NCBI GenBank assembly: GCA_046497275.1
Contig: JAWOFX010000057.1
Coordinates: 1 to 32,000, forward strand
Source: Promethearchaeia archaeon
GTDB lineage: Archaea > Asgardarchaeota > Lokiarchaeia > Sigyniarchaeales > SOKP01
Direction: 5' to 3'
Length of the DNA stretch: 32,000 bases
The notes under the pieces were generated by a model. It had not been told where the DNA came from. It did not search any database and saw only the letters and a program-made list of their open reading frames with translations. The position numbers and the translations under genes are program-made. Positions 4,417 through 26,784 of this stretch are shown here, one piece after another (position 1 is the first letter of the stretch; each line of letters opens with the position of its first letter).

Positions 4417-5751
4417 TTATATTCTCTGCATCGCTTTTTCTTTTGCAATTTTTTCTTCTTCTGTTAGTTCAACTTCTCCGCGTTTGACGAAAAACATTAA
4501 TACTAGAGAGATTAAAAAGAAAATTCCACAGTTTAGGAACATTGAAGCAATTCCGAACAAATCCATTAATGCCCCAATAAAGAAAGGTCCCAATATCGCA
4601 GCTAAAACGCTAAAGAAATAATAAACACCAGTATATGTCCCGATTTTTTCTGCAGAAGGAGCCAATTCCCAAACAATTACAATAGAATTTATATTTACGC
4701 AAGCCCAGCCTATTCCGAATACTACTAACCCGATTAATAATAATATTAAATTAGTACCTACAATAAAGGAATAAACCATAGCACATAATATTATTACTAA
4801 TCCAATTTTAATAGTTAACCTTCTTCCTATTTTTCCAGCTATTATACCAGCGGGGAGAGCAAACAAAATGAATGGCCCAGCAACGAAAAATAAAAGGAAA
4901 CCTGCTGTTCCTTCAGAACTGACAATATTTAATCCTTCTGGTCCTGCATAAACTGTAAATAATCCCTCTGCTCCTTGATATGCGATAAACCATGCAAAAA
5001 TTGCTAGTAAAATAAACAATGTACTTTTATCCTTTTCTGTAACAATATCTTTAAGACTTTCAATCAATTTTGGTCTCTCAATTCTCGGTTGAATATCAGC
5101 AATAGTTCCCTTGCCTCCTTGTTCTGCCTTGAGTATCAGTTGGTAAGAAAATGCATCCTTTTCTTTAACTTTCACCAATAAGACGCCTAATGCTATAAGC
5201 ATTAATAAAGAGACTATAATAAACCCTAATTGAAGCCCAATATAATTAGACAAAAGACTAATTATTGTCGCAATAAGTGTTCCTAACCCTCCCATTAGAT
5301 TTATTATTGCGTTAGCTTTACTTCGATTATAAGGTCTTATAAAATCAGGCATTAATGCAACTGCTTGAGAACGATAAAAACCCATGCTTAAACCAAATAA
5401 AAACATCCATAGAATTAATATCCAGAGTTGTGAGTCGAATCCAGTAGGAATAAGTGCAAAAAAGATTGCCGCAGATATAGTCCCTATTAATATATAGGGC
5501 ATACGTCGTCCTAATCTTGTACGTGTTGAATCTGAAAAAGACCCCATTATTGGTTGTATAATAACTCCAAGCATATTATCAAGAGCCATTAAGATACCAA
5601 CTATAGAGAGTAATAACCCATATCCTCTGAGAGCTTGATTGACTTGAGTGTTATAGAGACTCCATGAGATTCCCGTGGTAAAGAATGCCAAACCAATATA
5701 GAATGTTAATTTCAGATCTAATTTTTCTCTTTTCTGTGTTTCTTCTGACAT
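4417..5751 (-). CDS. MFS sugar transporter (maltose/sucrose-type); ATG at 5751 preferred over TTG at 5760
   Basis: DNMLGVIIQPIMGSFSDSTRTRLGRRMPY, ALMPD, GTYTGVYY; about 12 TM segments. Confidence 0.85.
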   Translation of the reverse strand: MSEETQKREKLDLKLTFYIGLAFFTTGISWSLYNTQVNQALRGYGLLLSIVGILMALDNMLGVIIQPIMGSFSDSTRTRLGRRMPYILIGTISAAIFFALIPTGFDSQLWILILWMFLFGLSMGFYRSQAVALMPDFIRPYNRSKANAIINLMGGLGTLIATIISLLSNYIGLQLGFIIVSLLMLIALGVLLVKVKEKDAFSYQLILKAEQGGKGTIADIQPRIERPKLIESLKDIVTEKDKSTLFILLAIFAWFIAYQGAEGLFTVYAGPEGLNIVSSEGTAGFLLFFVAGPFILFALPAGIIAGKIGRRLTIKIGLVIILCAMVYSFIVGTNLILLLIGLVVFGIGWACVNINSIVIVWELAPSAEKIGTYTGVYYFFSVLAAILGPFFIGALMDLFGIASMFLNCGIFFLISLVLMFFVKRGEVELTEEEKIAKEKAMQRI

Positions 5752-5901
5752 GTGAATCAATTATTAAGATAATTATTTCTATTAAAATTTTTCCAATCTA
5801 GGAAAAAGTTGTAAACTATAAAAAGCCTTATTTTAATTATTGAAAAGAGAATGAATTAATAATAAGAAAAAATTAATAAATCTCTCAAAAGAAAAAGATA
5901 A

Positions 5902-7188: not shown

Positions 7189-7608
7189 TTATAGAAACGC
7201 TTTTCTATATTCCATCAATCTAAGCTTTTCTTGTATTGATTCGAATTGATTCTCTTTAATTCTTGGAAGAATATCTCTCCAAATTTTCCTATAGGGATAA
7301 AAATATTCCGAAATTTCAAGAGCATCCCCAAAAATAGTTTTATAATTTTGGATTATATCTATTTGTATATAAAGAGGAAACAATTCAAAGACTCGAACAT
7401 CGTAATTAGAAGGAGCTTTAGCCAATAAAGCATCCCATGTTTCAATATTTTTTGCTTTGTTTTTAATTTTCGTGATAATAGCAATATCTATATCAGATCT
7501 ATTTACTATATAATTGTCGCTAAGAAATCTACCATAAATTATTGTCCAATATTCATTGCAAAATTTTAAATCGTTTTTGATTTTTTCAAGGTTTTTAGAA
7601 TTTTTCAT
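7189..7608 (-). CDS. MNT-type minimal nucleotidyltransferase (MntA-like antitoxin), with GS>GR change
   Basis: IIYGRFLSDNYIVNRSDIDIAI, YDVRVFELFP; overlaps the end of the upstream HEPN gene. Confidence 0.85.
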   Translation of the reverse strand: MKNSKNLEKIKNDLKFCNEYWTIIYGRFLSDNYIVNRSDIDIAIITKIKNKAKNIETWDALLAKAPSNYDVRVFELFPLYIQIDIIQNYKTIFGDALEISEYFYPYRKIWRDILPRIKENQFESIQEKLRLMEYRKAFL

Positions 7609-7995
7609 TGATAATAATATCCCCTTTTTTCACAAATAAATTTAAATTTTCTCTAATATCTTCCTTTTGTTGGAGAATTAGATCCTCCTGAACTTTATTG
7701 TTTTTATGCACTAAGGCATTTCGTAAACCATTAAATTTTCGTAAATTCTTCACCAATTCGGGGGAAAATATATTTAATTCTTTTATTTTTTCTCTATTTG
7801 TATAATCATCTCTTACTTTTATTCCTAAATCCTTACAGAGCATCGCTATCACATCCATAGATGCATCGATTGCCAATTGGAGTCGATAAAATAATGCATC
7901 AATATAAATCTTGTCTTGATTTTCCACGTTTGGGAGATTATGTATTTTTTCGATTATGAAATCTAATTTTTTTTTATACTGTTCTTTCTATTCAT
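7595..7995 (-). pseudogene. HepT-like (DUF86/HEPN) RNase toxin, interrupted by a 1-nt frameshift near the 5' end
   Basis: GLRNALVH (Rx4H) and RLQLAIDASMD. ATG at 7995 meets TAG right after an A9 run, while the adjacent frame continues LDFIIEKIHNLPNVENQD into the 7595-7927 ORF. Total 401 nt, one short of 402. Confidence 0.75.
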
Positions 7996-8194
7996 ATCTA
8001 AAATCTATGTCTTTTTATTATTAAAAAATTTAAGATTCATTTTTCCACCTTATATAGTAAAAGAAAATTTTTATATTATCAGAAAAGAAATATTAACATT
8101 GTTATTGATTTTAATAATTAATAATTATGTGAATTATTAGAATTACACTTAATTTATCAAATAATAAATAAGATTGAAAATTGGAGTAAAAAAA

Positions 8195-11161
8195 ATGAAT
8201 GAAGCAGAGATAAATGAAAACTTGGAACGATTTAAACAATCACTTTCTCTTTTAAATGTAGTTTTTAGCCGTAAAAGATATCGTAAAGAAATTGTGAATG
8301 AAGAGACAGGCTACACATTTAATGCGAAGTATCAATTTAGTACTCGAGATGGAGAGTTTGATTTCTATTTAATATTCCAAGATGGAGAAATTAGTACGGG
8401 GGAGGGAAAAATTGAAGACCCTAATATAACGATTTATTATAAAAATAGAGCTACTTTAGCGGAAACATGGAATAAGAGTGCGGACGAGACTTTAGAATAT
8501 TTACTCGATAATAGAATGTCTTATAAAGGCAATATGACCTATTTAACGAAATTTTCCTATCTTACTTCGGTAGCTACTGGAGCGAAAATAAAAGGATATA
8601 AAGGACCTGAAAATCAATTAATTTGTTCTATAGAGGAGATATTAGAAGGAGAAGCCAAGAGAATACTTAAAAATGAGAGTCTTGACAGAAAAATTGATAA
8701 TGTAGAATACTTAGATGATCCCTATTTATCGAAATATACCATCAACGATTTTCCGCGATTAAAATATCTAAAAGCAAGACGTCGGGCGTTAAAACCAGCA
8801 ATTTGTGTTGAGAGAGCAAAATTAGTGACTGATTATCACAAAAAGAATGGATTTGAAACTGATCCTAAAGGAAACCCAATCGATCCAGAGCTCCGTCAAG
8901 CGAACGCTGTTAATTATATTATGAGCAATAAGAAACCGATTATCCATGAAAATCATCTTGTAGCAGGTTCAACCACTTCAAAAGAAGTAGGTGTTCCAAT
9001 ATATCCCGAACTAATTGGTACTGCAGTTTGGCCTGAATTACGAAGCATAGGAAATAGAAAGCTAAATCCCAATGATATAGATCCAAAGGATGCGGATATT
9101 CTTAGTCAAGAAGTATTTCCTTATTGGATGGAAAGAAATGTGCGGGAATATTGCCGTGCTAAATTTGATGATCCAATTTCTCAGTGGCTTGAGGAATGCT
9201 GGGTATTTTATTTTATGATGAAGAATAATGCGATATCTCACACCGTTCCAGGATTTCCTATAATTTTAGAAAAAGGATTAAAAGCCATTAAAGAAGAAGC
9301 TTTTGAAAAGGAACAGAAAGCAGATTCGCCTGATAAAAAGAATTTCTATAAAGCAATTCAAATCTCGATTGACGGCGCTATAAATTATTCTAATCATTTG
9401 AGTGAAGAGGCTTTAAGAATCGCAAATGATTTAGATCCAAATATTCCTGAAGAGGCTATTCGAAAAAAGGAATTAGAGGAAATTTCAAGAATTTGTGCAA
9501 AAGTTCCTGCAGAACCTGCTGAGACTCTCCAAGAGGCAATTCAATCAATTTGGACAAGTTTTGTATGTATACATTGTGAAAATGCTAATTCTGCTATGAG
9601 TATTGGCAGATTGGACCAGATGTTACAACCCTATTTTATGAATGATATTAAAAAAGCGAATACAGATAACGAAAAAGAACAGATGATTGAAAAAGCAATA
9701 GAGTTAGTAGGATCCTTATTTTTAAGAAGTAATGATCATGATCCATTAGTCCCATCTATAGGGAATAAATTGTTTGGAGGTTCCTCATCGGATGACACTG
9801 TTACGGTAGGAGGTGTGGACAGGGATGGTAATAATGCTGTTTGTGATATGACTTTTATTATCTTAAAGACAAATGAAATGCTTTGTTTTCAGGATCCCAA
9901 TATGAATGCAAGATATCATCCCGGTGTTAACTCAGAAGAATACTTACGAAGATTAGTTGAGGTAAATGTAAACATGATATCCTCACCTGCAATTCATAAT
10001 GATAAAACTATGATCGAAGCTCTTGTCAATGAGGGTTTCAAATTAGAACACGCAAGAGACTGGGCAGCAACAGGATGCGTGGAACCTACAATAGTCGGAA
10101 AACACTATGGTCACACTAATTGTATGTTGTTAAATTTAGTTGCACCATTAGAAATGACATTAAATGACGGAATTCATCCTTTAATTGGAGAACAAGTCGG
10201 ACCTAAAACAGACATTCCTTCTTTAGAAAAGTTTCCTACTTTTGAGGATTTTTACAAGGCATATAAAACTCACTTGGCTTATCTAATCGAAAAATCCATA
10301 GAAATTAATAACTTTTTAGGCATGACTCATCAATATATTCATCCTACACCGTTTCTATCTGCTTTCTATGAAGGAACTTTAGACTCGGGAAAAGATATAA
10401 TATATGGTGGAGCGCTTTATAACACTTCAGGAGTAGCTTTGGTTGCCTTAACGGATGTTATCGATAGCTTGCTAGTAATAAAAGATTTAATTTATGATAA
10501 AAAAGAATTAGATTTTTCTACTTTGCTTTATGCATTAGAAGATAATTTTGAAAACGGTTCGGCAGAATTATTGAATAAAATTGATCAAGTAGATAAATTT
10601 GGTTCTGATGAACCTGGAACTAAAGATATTGCAGATAATCTCTTAGAATTTTGCTATAATGAATACAAGAAGACTAAAAATTATCGAGGCGGAGACTATC
10701 TTGTAGGCTATTGGTCTATAAGTTATCATGTTGGATACGGAATGCTTACTGGAGCATTACCATCAGGAAGAAAAGCGGGAGAATCACTAACACACGCGTT
10801 AACACCTGCCCCTGGCAGATCTGATATGTTGTTACAAAATATTCGCACTATCGCAAGCTTAGATCATCTCAAAATGCCAAATAATGCCTCATATAATGTA
10901 AAACTTGTACCTCACGCTAATGATACTCACACAGAGACTTTGGATCTTTTTACAAGCTATGTAGAAAGCTTTTTTGATTTGGGAGGAATGCTATGGCAAT
11001 TTAATATTGTAACCTCAGATACTTTAAGAGATGCGATGGAAAATCCAGATAATTATAGATGGTTAATTGTTAGAGTTTCGGGTTATAATGCATATTTCAC
11101 CCAAATCAATGAAAATATGCAAAGAGAAATAATCGAAAGAACAGAATTCCATTCAAGATAA
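8195..11161 (+). CDS. Glycyl radical enzyme (PFL2/eliminase-like) with N-terminal SCP2-like domain; ATG 8195 preferred over TTG 8174
   Basis: Cys loop WAATGCVEP (Cys codon 10076-10078), Gly loop IVRVSGYNAYF (Gly codon 11081-11083), SIGRLDQ, TVTVGGVD, GALPSGRKAG; GGAG at 8183-8186 upstream of ATG. Confidence 0.95.
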   Translation: MNEAEINENLERFKQSLSLLNVVFSRKRYRKEIVNEETGYTFNAKYQFSTRDGEFDFYLIFQDGEISTGEGKIEDPNITIYYKNRATLAETWNKSADETLEYLLDNRMSYKGNMTYLTKFSYLTSVATGAKIKGYKGPENQLICSIEEILEGEAKRILKNESLDRKIDNVEYLDDPYLSKYTINDFPRLKYLKARRRALKPAICVERAKLVTDYHKKNGFETDPKGNPIDPELRQANAVNYIMSNKKPIIHENHLVAGSTTSKEVGVPIYPELIGTAVWPELRSIGNRKLNPNDIDPKDADILSQEVFPYWMERNVREYCRAKFDDPISQWLEECWVFYFMMKNNAISHTVPGFPIILEKGLKAIKEEAFEKEQKADSPDKKNFYKAIQISIDGAINYSNHLSEEALRIANDLDPNIPEEAIRKKELEEISRICAKVPAEPAETLQEAIQSIWTSFVCIHCENANSAMSIGRLDQMLQPYFMNDIKKANTDNEKEQMIEKAIELVGSLFLRSNDHDPLVPSIGNKLFGGSSSDDTVTVGGVDRDGNNAVCDMTFIILKTNEMLCFQDPNMNARYHPGVNSEEYLRRLVEVNVNMISSPAIHNDKTMIEALVNEGFKLEHARDWAATGCVEPTIVGKHYGHTNCMLLNLVAPLEMTLNDGIHPLIGEQVGPKTDIPSLEKFPTFEDFYKAYKTHLAYLIEKSIEINNFLGMTHQYIHPTPFLSAFYEGTLDSGKDIIYGGALYNTSGVALVALTDVIDSLLVIKDLIYDKKELDFSTLLYALEDNFENGSAELLNKIDQVDKFGSDEPGTKDIADNLLEFCYNEYKKTKNYRGGDYLVGYWSISYHVGYGMLTGALPSGRKAGESLTHALTPAPGRSDMLLQNIRTIASLDHLKMPNNASYNVKLVPHANDTHTETLDLFTSYVESFFDLGGMLWQFNIVTSDTLRDAMENPDNYRWLIVRVSGYNAYFTQINENMQREIIERTEFHSR

Positions 11162-11225
11162 AAGATATTCTTCAGATTCCTATATTTTTAATTCTTTATT
11201 TTTTTTTATTTCTTAATTCTTTATC
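11162..11225 (+). terminator. U-rich archaeal-type terminator region after the GRE
   Basis: Multiple T-tracts (TATATTTTTAATTCTTTATTTTTTTTATTTC) immediately after the stop. Confidence 0.45.
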
Positions 11226-11293
11226 TAAGAAGTCAGTTGTGAATATTTTACTTTAAAAAGGAAAAAGAGAGAGATTATGAACAATCCAAGATT

Positions 11294-11485
11294 TTAGCTG
11301 GCTTTTTTTTCCCATAAAGAACCGAAGATTAATCCTATCACTAAAAAAACCCCAATTAAAATAAAACTCAGCGCATTATTTGTGTAAATAAAAGCTAGGA
11401 TCGCTAAAATCGAACCGAAAATAATACCAAACAACATTCCTAAATTGGTTCTCGAAATCTTCTTATCTTTAGTTTCTGCTACCAT
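11294..11485 (-). CDS. Small two-TM membrane protein
   Basis: 63 aa, two Gly-rich hydrophobic helices, basic N-terminus; SD-like GTGA upstream. Confidence 0.7.
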   Translation of the reverse strand: MVAETKDKKISRTNLGMLFGIIFGSILAILAFIYTNNALSFILIGVFLVIGLIFGSLWEKKAS

Positions 11486-11649
11486 TCTTTATCACTTTAA
11501 ATATTTATTTAAATTTGGAAGTATAAAATTAAAATTACATTTTTATATAATTTTTCTGTTTTTAGGTAATAAACAATTTATGGTCTCATTTTATTAGGTT
11601 TAGTGTCTAAATATAATTTAATATAATTTTAAAAATGAGTTGAAAATCA

Positions 11650-12516
11650 TTGGATTATAATTTCGAAACAATTAATTTTGAACTAAAAGAGAATGGAATT
11701 GGCATTTTAACTCTGAGTAGGCCAGATAAACTGAATGCAATGTCTTTTCAGATGATTGAAGATTTACATGAATTATTAGACCATTTGATGGTAAATCTTA
11801 ATTGTCGTGTAGTAATTTTGAAAGCATCGGGCAGGGCATTTTGCGCAGGATTGGATTTAAAAGAATCTGTGGTTCTCCAATCCAAGAAAAAACCAGATGA
11901 TTTGAAAGAAAAATTTTATTTTATAGATGTACCAGAAAAGGATATAATTAAAGCAAAGATGTATGGACAATGGAGGACTGGTCAATTGATTCTTAAAATG
12001 AGAAAGATAAATCAACCTGTTATTGCTTTAATACAAGGGGCAGCTTCAGGTGCAGGATTTGCCTTTTCATTAGCAGCTGATATAAGAATCGCGGGAGAAA
12101 ATGCAAAATTTAATAATGCTTTCATAAAGGTTGGTTTTTCTGGAGCAGATATGGGAAGTAGTTACCATTTACCGAGATTGATAGGGATGTCAAGAGCAGC
12201 TGAAATTCTGTATACAGGGCGTTTTATTGAAGCGGAAGAAGCAGAAAGAATAGGCTTAGTACTTAAAATCATAAAAGGAGGAGATGAAGAATTATATAAT
12301 GCTGGATTAGAACTTGCTAATAATATGCTTCATAAAAGTCCTTTGGGCTTACGAATGACAAAAGAAGCGATAAATCTTTCGATGGATGCTCCGAGTTTAG
12401 AAACAATGATACAATTAGAAAATCGAACACAGATGCTTTGCTCAACTTCCTCAGATGTTATGGAAGGGGTAAAAGCATTTTTCGAAAAAAGAGATCCAGA
12501 ATATCCATTAAAATAA
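11650..12516 (+). CDS. Enoyl-CoA hydratase/isomerase (crotonase) family protein, TTG start
   Basis: LSRPDKLNAM, GRAFCAGLDL, GAASGAG, AADIRIA, LPRLIG, EAERIGLV, AFFEKRDP. Confidence 0.95.
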   Translation: MDYNFETINFELKENGIGILTLSRPDKLNAMSFQMIEDLHELLDHLMVNLNCRVVILKASGRAFCAGLDLKESVVLQSKKKPDDLKEKFYFIDVPEKDIIKAKMYGQWRTGQLILKMRKINQPVIALIQGAASGAGFAFSLAADIRIAGENAKFNNAFIKVGFSGADMGSSYHLPRLIGMSRAAEILYTGRFIEAEEAERIGLVLKIIKGGDEELYNAGLELANNMLHKSPLGLRMTKEAINLSMDAPSLETMIQLENRTQMLCSTSSDVMEGVKAFFEKRDPEYPLK

Positions 12517-13254: not shown

Positions 13255-14571
13255 CTATTCTTGATTAGTATCAAACTTACTTTTCTTTTTTCTATTTTCA
13301 TGAGCATAAAGTTCAGGATGCATTTTTAAATCTATTACCCCTAATAACAACAGAACACCTCCAAAAATTGTAGCTGTATATCCAATTAATTCATATGCAT
13401 TAAGAGTAATGAAAGCTAATGAAAAATAACCAATTTGCAAATAACTTGTTGCTATGAGAGGCATGATTGACTGTGCAATAGATTGAAAATTGGTGGAGTA
13501 TCCCGATGCTGTTCCTTGTTTATCTGATTCTACTGCCTTTGTGATGTTTGATTGAATTAATGGTGGCAGAAAAGCCATTATAAAACCAAAGGGAATAACG
13601 AAAATAAAAACCATCCAATATTCAAATAGAAATGGATAAAATGTTGATACAATTACTGCCAAAGATAATGTGAATAAATATACTGCTTTCTCTCCAAACT
13701 TTTTAATTACTTTTTTCATGAGAAATCCTCCATAAAGCATTACAAAACTAGCTCCAAAAGTCATAACAATACCGATTGCTGATGGACCTGCGCCATACCT
13801 TTTATCCATAACTAAAGCAAGACTTGAATTAAATAAGACTGTGATACTGAACCCAATGAATAATTGTGTAAGTCTAAATATTAATCCTTTGTTCCATATA
13901 GATTTCCTTCCTTCTAATTCATATTTTTTTATTAATTCTTTCTTTATATCCTCTCTTCTTTTAGCTGGCATACTTTCAACTACAACTGTATATGTTAAAA
14001 TTATGCTTGTTGTTGCCATACCGCAAGCAACAAATGCTGGATATCTCCAATTGATTGATCCCAAAAATCCACCTAAACTGGGACCAAAAATCATTCCCAA
14101 AGCATAACTAACAGTAATTTTTCCTATTTCTGCAGATCTTGTTTTTGGAGTTGTAATATCTGTAATATAAGCTCTAATAACAGGTATCTGCCCTCCAAAA
14201 ATTCCATCAAGAATTCTTGATAAAAATATTATGAGGATAGAATCAGATAATCCTAGAACGAGAAAGGCTGCGAATGTACCTGCTTGAGAAATAACTAATA
14301 TCGGTTTTCTTCCATAAATATCACTTAATTTACCCCAAATCGGCCCAAATATTAGTGCTGTGAAAGCATTTGATGATATAAGTATCCCGACAATGATATC
14401 TTCCGCGCCATATATTTGTGCAATCTCTGGCAAAAGTGGTAGGACCATACTATAACCTAAAACATCCACAAAAATACTCAACATTATTGTAAAAAAGGCG
14501 ATCCTTATATTCACATTATATTTTTCTAGTTCATGTCCATTGGTTTTACCTTCAGAAGATTCAATATTCAT
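13255..14571 (-). CDS. MFS transporter, DHA1/TetA-like
   Basis: GKLSDIYGRKP motif A, RILDGIFGG, AYITDIT, GMIFGPSLGG. Confidence 0.9.
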   Translation of the reverse strand: MNIESSEGKTNGHELEKYNVNIRIAFFTIMLSIFVDVLGYSMVLPLLPEIAQIYGAEDIIVGILISSNAFTALIFGPIWGKLSDIYGRKPILVISQAGTFAAFLVLGLSDSILIIFLSRILDGIFGGQIPVIRAYITDITTPKTRSAEIGKITVSYALGMIFGPSLGGFLGSINWRYPAFVACGMATTSIILTYTVVVESMPAKRREDIKKELIKKYELEGRKSIWNKGLIFRLTQLFIGFSITVLFNSSLALVMDKRYGAGPSAIGIVMTFGASFVMLYGGFLMKKVIKKFGEKAVYLFTLSLAVIVSTFYPFLFEYWMVFIFVIPFGFIMAFLPPLIQSNITKAVESDKQGTASGYSTNFQSIAQSIMPLIATSYLQIGYFSLAFITLNAYELIGYTATIFGGVLLLLGVIDLKMHPELYAHENRKKKSKFDTNQE

Positions 14572-16108: not shown

Positions 16109-17230
16109 TCAATTTTTATTCGATTTGAATTTTTGATATTTTTCTTTTAATTGATTTTTTTTAGCTAAAATAGAACTATAAAGTTTGGTTGATGTTTCGG
16201 GTGGTTTTTTAATATTTTTGATAATATTCAGGGATAAAGCTTCAGATGGACATATATAAACGCAATTTCCACATCCAATGCATCGCTTTTTATTTATTTG
16301 AGCTCTATCTTCTTCAAGAGTTATTGCGTCCATTTGACATCTGTCAATACAAGTTCCACATCCAATGCATAATTCTGAATCTACTTGAGCATAAAAATTA
16401 TTATGTGCAAGTTTAGAAGGATTATGAAGTTTTCTTAAACCAGCTGTCAAACCACAGCAACATGTACAGCATCCACAGAAGAAAAGGGGTTCTTGAGTAT
16501 TTTCAACATTTAATATTAATCCATCTTCTTCATTTTTCTTCAAAATGTTTAAAGCTTCTTTCTTAGAGATTTCTCGTGCCCATCCTTGATCTATATATAA
16601 CTGAGCCATCCAGTCGACCGCCATACATATTTCTCTTCGATCAGTAATTTTGCACGGTTTTCCAATCATATCTGTTGCTTTCTTACATATACAATCCGTT
16701 ACGGCAAAAGGAGGGTTTGCTTTTTCAAAAATCTCTTTTATATTATCATAAGTAGATATTTTAATCTCTGATTCAATACTTTGTTCAATGGGAACCGTCC
16801 TAAGTTGTGAAATTTTAGTTCTCATTATCTCAAATCCGAATGCTTCCGTGATATAATGAAATACGTCTTTTACTAATTGCTTATCTAAACGTTTTAATTG
16901 ATACTCATAAAATCCTACTACTAATGGTGCGTTTGCATAGAATTTTGTATTATTCTCGTATTTATAATTAATAAGACCATCTTGAACCATTTCATTTAAA
17001 ACAGATTCGAGTTGATTGATCGAAATTTCATCGATATCTATAGTTTTATATATTTCTTCCAATTTCTGCCACTTCCATGATAGAAAAGTGGCAATATGAG
17101 CTTGATCGGGTTGGAAAAGTTGTTTAAGGATTTTTATTTCAATCCCAGATTTGGTTGCAGGGTATCCAATAGGCATTCTATCAAGATGTTCCCTTAATTC
17201 ATTATAAACATTTTCCTTATTTTCTTTCAT
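16109..17230 (-). CDS. Cys-rich 4Fe-4S dicluster protein (paralogue A)
   Basis: CICKK...C...C, CGCCTCCC cluster, two ferredoxin motifs CIGCGTCIDRC and CIGCGNCVYICP. Confidence 0.9.
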   Translation of the reverse strand: MKENKENVYNELREHLDRMPIGYPATKSGIEIKILKQLFQPDQAHIATFLSWKWQKLEEIYKTIDIDEISINQLESVLNEMVQDGLINYKYENNTKFYANAPLVVGFYEYQLKRLDKQLVKDVFHYITEAFGFEIMRTKISQLRTVPIEQSIESEIKISTYDNIKEIFEKANPPFAVTDCICKKATDMIGKPCKITDRREICMAVDWMAQLYIDQGWAREISKKEALNILKKNEEDGLILNVENTQEPLFFCGCCTCCCGLTAGLRKLHNPSKLAHNNFYAQVDSELCIGCGTCIDRCQMDAITLEEDRAQINKKRCIGCGNCVYICPSEALSLNIIKNIKKPPETSTKLYSSILAKKNQLKEKYQKFKSNKN

Positions 17231-20491: not shown

Positions 20492-21760
20492 TTAGTTTTG
20501 ATTATTTGGATTTGAAGCTAATTGCTTTTTTTCAAAGTTATCAATTTTTCTTAAATCTGTGGACACCCAGATAATAATAGTGAAGAGTATTCCTAGTATT
20601 CCATATAATAACCATAGAGTAGCTATTCCGATTATTTTAGACAGAGGTCCTGCGAGGAGTATTGAAATAGGAGTTATTGCTGAAGATATCAAAAATACTA
20701 TTGAAATCACTCTTCCTTGTTTATCGGTTGGAACTTTTGTTTGTATTAAAGTAAGGAACATAGTGTTTACAATAGGTAAGAAAATGCCATGTATAAACGC
20801 ACCAACCATCATCATAGAAAATAATTGATAAGGTGATAAAGCTATTATCAAACAACCAAAATTTTGAACAAGAATTCCAAGAAAAATTATCAAAATTTTT
20901 CGATCCCACTCCTTCTTAATAGTTACTACAATGGCACCGATTAAAATCCCAAAACTCATCGATCCGGATACAAATGCATATATTAATCCCGTACCTGAAT
21001 TATCTACGAGAATATAATTTGATAAAAGCGTTTGCAATGGCATTATGAAGAAATTTGCGAATGTTGCTAAAAGAAGTAATATTAATAGTCCAGGCATTAC
21101 CCTTATAATTTTTATTCCTTCTTTAATATCGCTTCTAAAATTAGAAGCATTAACTTTTTTCTCTTCTTCTTTCCGAATATCTGGGATTTTAATAAGGATA
21201 AGAGGGATTATGGCAATTACAAAAGTTATTACATCTATCGATAAAGCAATTTCAATCGGAAAAATAGAAACAAACACACCCCCAACTATTGGGCCAATAA
21301 TATGTATGAAGCTAGTAAATAAATAATTAATTCCATTAACTCTACTTAGATGTTCTTTTGGGACCATTGTAGGGATAATAGCATTTGAGGGAGGTAAATG
21401 AATAAATTGAAATATGGATCTTAATAAGCTAATTATCAAAATTAAGTAAAAATTTTCCAAGTTTGTCAAGAAAAATACGATTAAAATTAAAGTTGTAATT
21501 GCTTGAGATGTATCCGCAAAAGCAATCATCTTTTTTCTGTTCAATTTATCTGCGTATACTCCAGCAATTGGGCTAATGATTATAGGAGGAAGGAAAGAAA
21601 CGAAATAGATCAAAGATGTCAATATTTCATCTTGATAAATATCAGTAATCCACAAAGGTATAACGAATTGAACAATAGATGATCCTAATAATGAAAATAT
21701 TTGTCCTATCCAAAAATAGATGTAACTATTAAAGGTCTTTCTTGTAGGATGATTTTCCAT
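20492..21760 (-). CDS. MFS transporter, DHA3/MefA-like
   Basis: WIGQIFSLLGS, AGVYADKLNRKK, VPKEHLSRVNG, QTKVPTDKQGRV. Confidence 0.9.
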   Translation of the reverse strand: MENHPTRKTFNSYIYFWIGQIFSLLGSSIVQFVIPLWITDIYQDEILTSLIYFVSFLPPIIISPIAGVYADKLNRKKMIAFADTSQAITTLILIVFFLTNLENFYLILIISLLRSIFQFIHLPPSNAIIPTMVPKEHLSRVNGINYLFTSFIHIIGPIVGGVFVSIFPIEIALSIDVITFVIAIIPLILIKIPDIRKEEEKKVNASNFRSDIKEGIKIIRVMPGLLILLLLATFANFFIMPLQTLLSNYILVDNSGTGLIYAFVSGSMSFGILIGAIVVTIKKEWDRKILIIFLGILVQNFGCLIIALSPYQLFSMMMVGAFIHGIFLPIVNTMFLTLIQTKVPTDKQGRVISIVFLISSAITPISILLAGPLSKIIGIATLWLLYGILGILFTIIIWVSTDLRKIDNFEKKQLASNPNNQN

Positions 21761-25662: not shown

Positions 25663-26784
25663 ATGACTCAAGAAAATAACGATGTTTATAAAACATTAAA
25701 AGAACATCTTGATACACTTCCAGTTGGCTATCCATCTACGGAGTCTGGAGTAGAATTAAAAATTTTACAAAATTTATTTACTCCCCAACAAGCTAAAATA
25801 GCTACAAAGCTTGATTTTATTGCGAAACCTTTAGAAAAAATTCATAGAAAGTTACGTAAAGAAAATCTATCGATTGAAGACTTGGAACAGATTTTAGATA
25901 AAATGTATTCTGAGGGGTTAATCAATAGAGGTGTGAATGAGGAACAAGGAAAAAAGGTTAAATATTACGCAAATGCTCCCTTTGCAATTGGGATTTATGA
26001 ATATCAATTAAATCGTCTAAATAAAGAATTCATTAAGTTGGCTGACCAATATTTTGAAGAGGCATTTATTGATGAATATAATACCTCGGGTATTCCACAA
26101 TTAAGAACAATTCCGATTGAACAAGCAGTTGAGACTACAAGAAGCGTAGCTACATACGATAATTTCAAGCAAGTTATTGAAGATTGTGGAGGTCCAATTG
26201 CAGTTGCAGAATGTATTTGTAAAAAAGAGAGAGATCTAATAGGCGATCCGTGTAAACAGACAGATCTTAGAGAAATTTGCTTTTCATTCAGAGGCGCTGC
26301 TAAACTATATGAAGAAAAAGGTTTAGGAAGATTTATTTCTAAGGAGGAAGCACTAGAGATTTTAGACCAGGCACAAAAAGATGGACTCGTTCTCCAACCA
26401 GGTAATTCTCAAAGACCAATGTGTATTTGTTGCTGTTGCGGATGTTGTTGTGGGATTTTAAGAAACCAAAAGAAATATGATGCGCCAGCGAAATTCTTTG
26501 CGACAAATTATTATGCTCAAGTGGAACCTGAATTGTGTATTGGATGTGGAGTTTGTGAAACTAGATGTAATATGGATGCAATAACAATCATAGATGAGAT
26601 TTCACATATAAATTTAGACCGATGTATAGGTTGCGGTGTTTGCGTTCCAACATGTCCAGAAGAGGCAATTTCATTACTCAAAAAGGAAGAAGAAATAATC
26701 CCTCCCAAAAATACAGTAGAAACTTACCAAGCTATTATGCATGGAAAAGCGAAAAAAGCGAGAACAGAAAAAAGAAATAATTAA
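25663..26784 (+). CDS. Cys-rich 4Fe-4S dicluster protein (paralogue B)
   Basis: CICKK...C...C, CCCCGCCC, CIGCGVCETRC and CIGCGVCVPTCP. Confidence 0.9.
   Translation: MTQENNDVYKTLKEHLDTLPVGYPSTESGVELKILQNLFTPQQAKIATKLDFIAKPLEKIHRKLRKENLSIEDLEQILDKMYSEGLINRGVNEEQGKKVKYYANAPFAIGIYEYQLNRLNKEFIKLADQYFEEAFIDEYNTSGIPQLRTIPIEQAVETTRSVATYDNFKQVIEDCGGPIAVAECICKKERDLIGDPCKQTDLREICFSFRGAAKLYEEKGLGRFISKEEALEILDQAQKDGLVLQPGNSQRPMCICCCCGCCCGILRNQKKYDAPAKFFATNYYAQVEPELCIGCGVCETRCNMDAITIIDEISHINLDRCIGCGVCVPTCPEEAISLLKKEEEIIPPKNTVETYQAIMHGKAKKARTEKRNN

Follow-up and report, generated by a model that had tools for sequence, protein, structure and literature searches.

An SCP2-fold accessory module marks an uncharacterised clade of glycyl radical enzymes in Asgard archaea and anaerobic bacteria

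Glycyl radical enzymes (GREs) perform chemically hard, oxygen-free reactions, and the one described here carries an additional module with the fold of a lipid carrier. It is encoded at positions 8195-11161 (+) of the window, that is, the whole stretch of 32,000 nucleotides analysed from a Promethearchaeia archaeon (GTDB lineage Archaea; Asgardarchaeota; Lokiarchaeia; Sigyniarchaeales; SOKP01; NCBI GenBank assembly GCA_046497275.1, contig JAWOFX010000057.1, positions 1 to 32,000 of the forward strand), which has a G+C content of about 30%. The gene is read as encoding a functional GRE of a previously uncharacterised clade that is defined by an obligatory accessory module of the SCP2 fold, and that module would hold a hydrophobic or amphipathic substrate, the polar end of which the enzyme would convert by radical chemistry of the eliminase or isomerase type. 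A probability of about 0.6 is attached to this statement as a whole, whereas the SCP2-module architecture and the GRE clade taken by themselves are real beyond reasonable doubt.

The gene is complete, and all of its features lie on the forward strand. An open frame extends from 8174 to 11161, and the probable start, an ATG at 8195, lies 8 nucleotides after a GGAG at 8183-8186, giving a protein of 988 amino acids. Pfam assigns residues 189-849 (8759-10741) to the PFL-like barrel domain (PF02901; E = 5.5e-162, 541 bits) and residues 869-969 (10799-11101) to the glycyl radical domain (PF01228; E = 1.7e-20, 74 bits), both above threshold. The Cys loop G627-C628-V629-E630 (10073-10084, with the Cys628 codon at 10076) and the Gly loop R960-V-S-G963-Y964 (11072-11086, with the Gly963 codon at 11081) are intact and stand at the positions given by the first-pass annotation of this DNA. 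Residues 960-982 fit the GRE fingerprint RVxG[FWY]x6-8[FL]x4Qx2[IV]x2R quoted in a June 2026 review of GREs, except for Ile971 at the [FL] position, which is Leu in most orthologues. Cys628 aligns with Cys433 of glycerol dehydratase, and among 111 SCP2-linked GREs compared, 110 have the catalytic Cys; the remaining one, a divergent N-terminally fused metagenomic member of 985 amino acids (P0155), has Ala for the catalytic Cys and Gln for the Glu, has lost the Arg of RVxG, and is probably a non-catalytic derivative. The first-pass annotation also counted about 130 extra N-terminal residues, a figure that describes the folded module well (residues 1-130, 8195-8584) and has to be extended for the whole, as about 185 residues precede the PFL-like domain. 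The remainder is a linker (residues 131-189, 8585-8761), modelled with low confidence, in which conserved YKGPEN and DDPYLxxY motifs are followed by the GRE core.

By its sequence the N-terminal domain is a remote member of the SCP2 family. A mean column identity of 74% over 40 orthologues indicates a conserved domain and no chance pattern. The suggestion of an SCP2-like N-terminus is not carried by Pfam on the window copy alone, where the SCP2 model scores 14.9 bits (E = 0.034) against a cutoff of 21.3 bits, but it is borne out among 40 orthologues scanned singly, 38 of which matched SCP2 at E below 1 (best E = 6.9e-5), by far the commonest match. A profile of the domain compared with the sequences of the PDB gave nothing significant (best E = 0.22), so that the SCP2 relationship is visible by fold comparison only. 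Modelled with AlphaFold2 from a 40-sequence alignment, residues 1-190 reach a mean predicted local distance difference test (pLDDT) score of 81.8, with blocks of about 84-96 within residues 1-90, and show a helix, four strands, two helices, a strand and a helix, in that order; in this model the N-terminus takes the SCP2 fold anticipated for it. The first 43 Foldseek matches in the PDB are all of SCP2 type and include UbiJ-SCP2 (E = 5e-6), AF1534, the C-terminal domains of the alkylsulfatases SdsA1, Pisa1 and YjcS, and animal, yeast and insect SCP2. VIA-align, an aligner independent of Foldseek that was run against 48,161 representative chains, agrees: human SCP2 comes first (Z 10.1, root-mean-square deviation 2.9 Å over 112 residues), the top 10 are all SCP2-type (Z 5.3-10.1, 106-115 residues aligned), and the next fold scores Z 4.8. 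In the predicted model the five-stranded sheet and flanking helices thus match solved SCP2 domains across the whole N-terminal domain. The motif G112-N-M-T-Y-L-T-K-F-S-Y122 (8528-8560), near-invariant in fused and stand-alone modules, resembles in its first nine residues what we take to be the hallmark of canonical SCP2, GNMxLAxKL near the C-terminus. An encapsulation peptide, as in the long forms of CutC, was considered for the N-terminal extension and ruled out, the domain being a globular SCP2 fold; a preprint on Asgard microcompartments lists no GRE among the core enzymes, which likewise counts against microcompartment targeting.

The fusion is not an oddity of the Asgard archaea; it is one form of a widespread pairing of a GRE with an SCP2-like protein, which in most bacteria is encoded by two genes. 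A word-indexed search with residues 1-185 returned 74 clusters, nearly all of 982-1000 amino acids, and the named orthologues, from Lokiarchaeota/Promethearchaeota, Hermod-, Thor-, Odin- and Freyarchaeota, are all Asgard, in agreement with the Asgard host that had been supposed from the letters. The window copy is 65-86% identical to this 988-residue family, in which two orthologues are from Hermodarchaeota. An exhaustive search with a profile of the N-terminal domain recovered 269 proteins at E up to 0.001, among them further GREs of 985-1024 amino acids and about 100 stand-alone proteins of about 150 amino acids without a Pfam match, one of which (P0093, from a Bacteroidota genome) has its gene flanked by that of a GRE on one side and that of an activase on the other. 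Scanning a single genome for each prokaryotic species, starting from a 12-sequence alignment, gave 182 relatives of the stand-alone module, and the best 80 loci were examined by searching six-frame open reading frames (ORFs) with hidden Markov models of GRE core, activase and module. In all 76 loci that have upstream sequence, a GRE of about 830 amino acids ends immediately upstream of the SCP2-like gene, and an activase follows that gene in 71 of the 80, the others lacking one despite available sequence (7) or being cut by the contig end (2). Hosts of this split form are Desulfobacterota, including the cultured Desulfoluna spongiiphila AA1, D. limicola, Desulfobacterium sp. N47 and Desulforhopalus, as well as Bacteroidota, Nitrospirota, Acidobacteriota/Aminicenantes, Spirochaetota, Fibrobacterota, Ignavibacteriota, Deferribacteres and Clostridia. 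In three bacterial loci (L051, L069 and L094) the GRE frame stays open across a Pro/Ala-rich linker and the module that follows it, a C-terminal fusion, and N-terminal fusions occur in bacteria as well, for instance in a Desulfobacterales protein; a 988-residue N-fused entry was also found in the AlphaFold DB. The module exists in three arrangements, fused at the N-terminus in Asgard archaea and a few bacteria, fused at the C-terminus in a few bacteria, and as a separate protein of 150 amino acids encoded between the GRE and activase genes in most anaerobic bacteria. Such an alternation between N-terminal fusion, C-terminal fusion and neighbouring gene is classic evidence of a physical and functional partnership.

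The genome of the window, which is 98.9% complete, encodes six GREs and three GRE activases (TIGR02494). One of the other GREs, on another contig (C117:3174-7102, locus L110; a 996-amino-acid ORF), is a paralogue that likewise bears the N-terminal domain and is 51% identical to the window enzyme in the core. The four further GREs are devoid of the module (C172:81969-84368, C65:12776-15196, C100:113-2458 and C111:18940-21441), and two of them have adjoining activases; the one on C65 combines an unusual K-V-G-G-Y Gly loop with an Arg 15 residues after the catalytic Cys, the fumarate-binding position of X-succinate synthases. The core of the window enzyme is 38-43% identical (median 40%) to bacterial GREs with a separate module, the best of which match at about 630-664 bits, and 29-32% identical (240-376 bits) to the four module-free GREs of its own genome; the best solved structure, PFL2 of A. 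fulgidus (2f3o), scores 389 bits. A maximum-likelihood tree was built from 46 sequences, with the four module-free GREs, on long branches, as the outgroup; the 12 N-fused GREs and the 30 split ones fall into a single clade (support 100/100), in which they are sister groups, each again with 100/100. With no characterised GRE in the tree and with long outgroup branches, separation from the characterised families rests on the score gap and on NCBIfam. There, the equivalog models for characterised eliminases (CutC, HypD, HpsG/HpfG and glycerol dehydratase) score 362-408 bits against cutoffs of 1000-1100, and the best equivalog, TIGR01774, scores 540 bits against 678, so that no equivalog cutoff is reached.

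The manner in which module and core may fit together was addressed by controlled complex prediction, in which residues 160-988 (62-row alignment) were paired with residues 1-135 (61-row alignment). The prediction gave an ipSAE of 0.91, the best of three controls giving 0.00; 58 of 80 solved complexes attained that mark, as did 2 of 110 mismatched pairs, counts that are rough here since custom alignments were used. The runs share at least 94% of contacts, and pLDDT of the partners is at least 85. That the model passed by memory is unlikely, as no solved complex of a GRE with an SCP2 module was found. On the module the predicted interface is centred on residues 111-126 and includes the conserved GNxxYLxKF motif, and on the core it involves residues 276-284, 301-337, 521-525 and 663-666 in full-length numbering. 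A signature of the clade, W279-P280-E281-L282 (9029-9040), touches module residues 115-122 in the model. Trp279 is present in all 111 SCP2-linked GREs compared, and Pro280, Met312, Glu318 and Arg321 are kept in most of them; the four module-free GREs of the genome lack both W279 and P280 and mostly differ at the positions of M312, E318 and R321 too, and the W279 position is Ile in 2f3o and Gln in glycerol dehydratase. This co-conservation within the clade argues for a real and ancient interface, and the prediction supports, without demonstrating, the binding of the module through its conserved motif to the helices that precede the barrel.

In the core itself, the active site is by alignment of the eliminase/isomerase type. 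Against glycerol dehydratase (1r8w), C628 and E630 correspond to C433 and E435, and His349 (9239-9241) to His164; C628-V-E630 is the CxE motif which, according to the June 2026 review, is kept in GRE 1,2-eliminases and isomerases. The expectation that the Glu of GCVE marks an eliminase-like GRE is therefore upheld by the core, which has both the CxE and the His typical of 1,2-eliminases and isomerases. In one of the sequences (P0202) Glu replaces His349. Four positions that we take, from their roles in glycerol dehydratase, to contact the substrate are altered in the window enzyme, as read from the alignment: Y339 to D533, S282 to A467, D447 to N642 and Y640 to W840. Common to the whole clade are K343, S348, H349, E462, A467, the G-C-V-E loop, G635, Y638, W840 and H845. 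In the bacterial enzymes G-T-V-P, S/D, A, S and N stand in place of the S531-S532-D533-D534, H637, H640, N642 and Y844 of the main Asgard family; with the latter residues the Asgard pocket would be polar or acidic and would fit a polar head group.

A second position in the loop region bears on a quite different reading, in which the enzyme is an alkyl- or benzylsuccinate synthase that adds a hydrocarbon to fumarate, the SCP2 module binding the alkane. X-succinate synthases have their fumarate-binding Arg 15 residues after the catalytic Cys (C493/R508 in BSS, C477/R492 in MASS), and by sequence spacing this Arg is replaced in the window enzyme by Cys643 and throughout the clade by C, S or A. 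The reading owes its appeal to several circumstances: GREs of Asgard archaea, those of Hermodarchaeota included, have been annotated as Ass/Bss on the strength of 29-33% identity, and two orthologues of the family are from Hermodarchaeota; A. fulgidus PFL2, the best match in the PDB, has been proposed as an alkylsuccinate synthase; and a module for hydrophobic ligands would suit alkanes. Yet no Cys-rich small ORF that could encode a HiPIP-like or rubredoxin-like subunit is present in 11161-11650 or upstream of the window gene, none was called next to the GRE in six orthologous Asgard loci, and the PDB chains of BSS and MasD score 185-212 bits compared with 326-389 bits for dehydratases. With no Arg at Cys+15, no Fe-S small-subunit ORF, the lower BSS/MasD scores, and a CxE motif and His that are features of eliminases and isomerases, a succinate synthase must be considered highly improbable.

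Under the preferred reading, an eliminase or isomerase with a docked carrier, the module would dock through GNxxYLxKF on the helices preceding the barrel and, as UbiJ/UbiT and the SCP2-like domain of the alkylsulfatases suggest by analogy, it would most likely hold the hydrophobic part of an amphipathic substrate so that the polar end with its hydroxyl faces the buried active site. A thiyl radical at Cys628 would take up a hydrogen atom, the substrate hydroxyl would lose its proton to Glu630, and the departure of a neighbouring leaving group would be aided by His349, in the manner of 1,2-eliminases or ring-opening isomerases. That the substrate is hydrophobic or amphipathic is likely, and the hydroxyacyl-CoAs and glycerol ethers put forward by the first-pass annotation are candidates for it; the carrier role of the module, which is argued from analogy, may be put at about even odds.

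Its main rival holds that the module is a structural or regulatory subunit and no lipid carrier, and the predicted docking bears directly on the choice. In canonical GREs the dimer interface is formed by the helices that precede the barrel, and these helices take part in the docking site, so that the module could serve assembly or regulation in place of substrate delivery. Moreover, the most conserved residues of the module are those at the predicted protein-protein interface, the small subunits known from other GREs serve gating and radical control, and the Asgard pocket is polar. The glycyl radical domain, however, is not among the predicted contacts, and lipids or other hydrophobic ligands are on record for most of the solved SCP2 modules among the top fold matches; a purely structural or regulatory module is accordingly judged doubtful, without being far-fetched. 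Further observations sit uneasily with a carrier-fed eliminase as set out above. The pocket residues suggest that substrates may differ between the Asgard and bacterial subclades; gene neighbourhood is not conserved among the Asgard orthologues, and the conserved neighbours in bacteria (DUF6765, a protein of 800 amino acids and small membrane proteins) are uncharacterised; the full-length AlphaFold2 model is poor, with a mean pLDDT of 65.9 and values below 50 in the linker and in many segments of the core; and the tree carries the limits of its sampling given above.

Activation of the enzyme raises a related issue, since no activase gene adjoins it. An activase directly follows the orthologue in five of the six Asgard loci examined (the sixth is L015), and a 297-amino-acid GRE activase directly follows the SCP2-linked paralogue on C117. 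The latter activase is 56-59% identical to those adjoining the orthologues, compared with 37-43% for the two other activases of the genome, and for this reason it probably activates the window enzyme in trans from the paralogous locus. The same facts can be turned to argue that the window copy is a redundant or silent paralogue and that the C117 gene is the functional unit, all the more as six GREs share three activases in this genome. That reading is improbable: the window copy belongs to the widespread 988-residue family as a true orthologue, at the 65-86% identity given above, its catalytic and interface residues are all intact, the L015 orthologue likewise has no adjoining activase, and trans-activation is common among GREs. 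Convergent to the paralogue and its activase lies a Peptidase_U32 gene, which may be coincidence; in the hydroxylation of ubiquinone that proceeds without O2, U32 proteins act together with UbiT, an SCP2 protein.

The window gene stands alone behind an AT-rich spacer of 270 nucleotides. A pathway linking it to the crotonases, thiolase and thioesterases of the window was rejected, as these are absent from all six orthologous Asgard loci, and the MFS transporters of the window likewise do not recur there. The four MFS genes (221-1630, 4417-5760, 13255-14571 and 20492-21760, all on the minus strand) fall in a 22-kb stretch, among genes for two crotonases, two hotdog thioesterases, a thiolase and a sulfatase, a context that the orthologous loci do not share. 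Immediately upstream of the GRE (7189-7927, -) is a pair of toxin-antitoxin type, a HepT-like HEPN ribonuclease and a nucleotidyltransferase (MNT), and just downstream (11294-11485, -) is an ORF of 63 amino acids for a predicted small membrane protein of two helices, a call without annotation support. Two paralogues of 373 amino acids (16109-17230, -, and 25663-26784, +; 47% identical) combine an N-terminal part without assignment with a 2x[4Fe-4S] domain at the C-terminus; a member of this family also lies close to the SCP2-linked GRE in loci L016 and L017, and a link to the GRE was not counted, as the genome holds at least eight such paralogues.

Three related Lokiarchaeial loci (L016, L112 and L113), which together amount to about one observation, all carry Ldh_2 pairs, a cation-efflux gene, DUF1848 and a FAD_binding_4 protein; L016 and L113 share CrtI-like FAD oxidoreductases with an FNR-like partner, L016 and L112 an aldehyde:ferredoxin oxidoreductase, and L112 and L113 SnoaL, and L113 adds the prenyltransferase UbiA and a geranylgeranyl reductase. 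These neighbours hint weakly at aldehyde products and isoprenoid lipids. Around the bacterial cassettes (80 loci, L022-L101; for example L022:1120-3465 and L063:1017-3437), DUF6765 occurs in 43 loci and an unannotated protein of 700-800 amino acids in 26, and tandem proteins of 190 amino acids with four or five predicted membrane helices and a GWPAWE motif in 11. A database look-up of DUF6765 and the 800-residue protein gave no functional lead, and DUF6765 was not found in the Asgard genome of the window.

A more specific proposal is that SCP2-docked GREs are anaerobic lyases of ether lipids, or of other glycerolipids or isoprenoid alcohols. The module would hold the alkyl or isoprenoid chains, and an active site resembling that of glycerol dehydratase would remove hydrogen from the glycerol-backbone carbon that bears the free hydroxyl and drive out the adjacent alkoxide, yielding a fatty or isoprenoid alcohol and an aldehyde. 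The proposal is weakly hinted at by the aldehyde:ferredoxin oxidoreductase, CrtI-like oxidoreductases, UbiA and geranylgeranyl reductase of the Lokiarchaeial loci and by the small multi-pass membrane proteins of some bacterial cassettes, and it must be regarded as a long shot. If true, it would mean O2-independent breakdown of archaeal and bacterial ether lipids by Asgard archaea and sediment bacteria.

Whatever the substrate, the analysis defines a large uncharacterised clade that is recognised by an accessory module of a new kind, folded like a lipid carrier, and it corrects the routine labels "formate acetyltransferase" or "Ass/Bss" on Asgard genes of this clade. The clade points to an uncharted anaerobic reaction on a hydrophobic or amphipathic molecule in sediments, for which cultured hosts of the split form such as Desulfoluna spongiiphila AA1 and D. 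limicola are tractable entry points.

Within the searchable literature an SCP2-type accessory module of a GRE is undescribed. The June 2026 review knows small subunits in three GREs only (HPAD, BSS and MASS), all of them HiPIP-like or rubredoxin-like and concerned with gating and radical control, which accords with the statement of the first-pass annotation that no characterised GRE is known to it with an SCP2 fusion; the words sterol and SCP were not found in that review, and a full-text literature search combining SCP2 or sterol carrier protein with glycyl radical gave nothing relevant, only one unrelated paper on fungal genomics. The review also notes that all functionally characterised PFL-like GREs are bacterial, that archaeal GREs are an open gap, and that the sole structurally characterised archaeal PFL-like GRE is A. 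fulgidus PFL2, the function of which is debated.

That protein (PFL2/PflD, 2f3o) is the closest solved relative of the window enzyme, with its 389-bit match spanning residues 196-983, and the two share GCVE, the equivalent of His164 of glycerol dehydratase, and Ala at the position of its S282. At 776 amino acids, however, 2f3o has no SCP2 module; it has Ile at the position of W279 and a different pocket, with D in place of N642 and NQ in place of D533-D534, and its score is far below those of the SCP2-linked bacterial GREs (389 vs 630-664 bits). Glycerol dehydratase (1r8w) and the other GRE 1,2-eliminases (CutC, HypD and propanediol dehydratase) match at 326-360 bits and are likewise without the module. 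The X-succinate synthases, BSS (alpha-beta-gamma) as well as MASS (alpha-beta-gamma-delta), resemble the window enzyme in needing small accessory proteins, one of them positioned over the substrate channel, and in acting on hydrophobic substrates, but these subunits are Fe-S proteins of HiPIP-like or rubredoxin-like type, not SCP2, and the window enzyme differs in lacking the Arg at Cys+15 and in having CxE. For the module itself the top structural matches are UbiJ/UbiT and the C-terminal domains of SdsA1, Pisa1 and YjcS (Foldseek E = 5e-6 to 3e-4, VIA-align Z 8.6-10); although these SCP2 domains are only 10-18% identical to the module and none partners an enzyme of the GRE superfamily, they provide a precedent for an SCP2 module that is attached to, or works with, an enzyme acting on a hydrophobic substrate.

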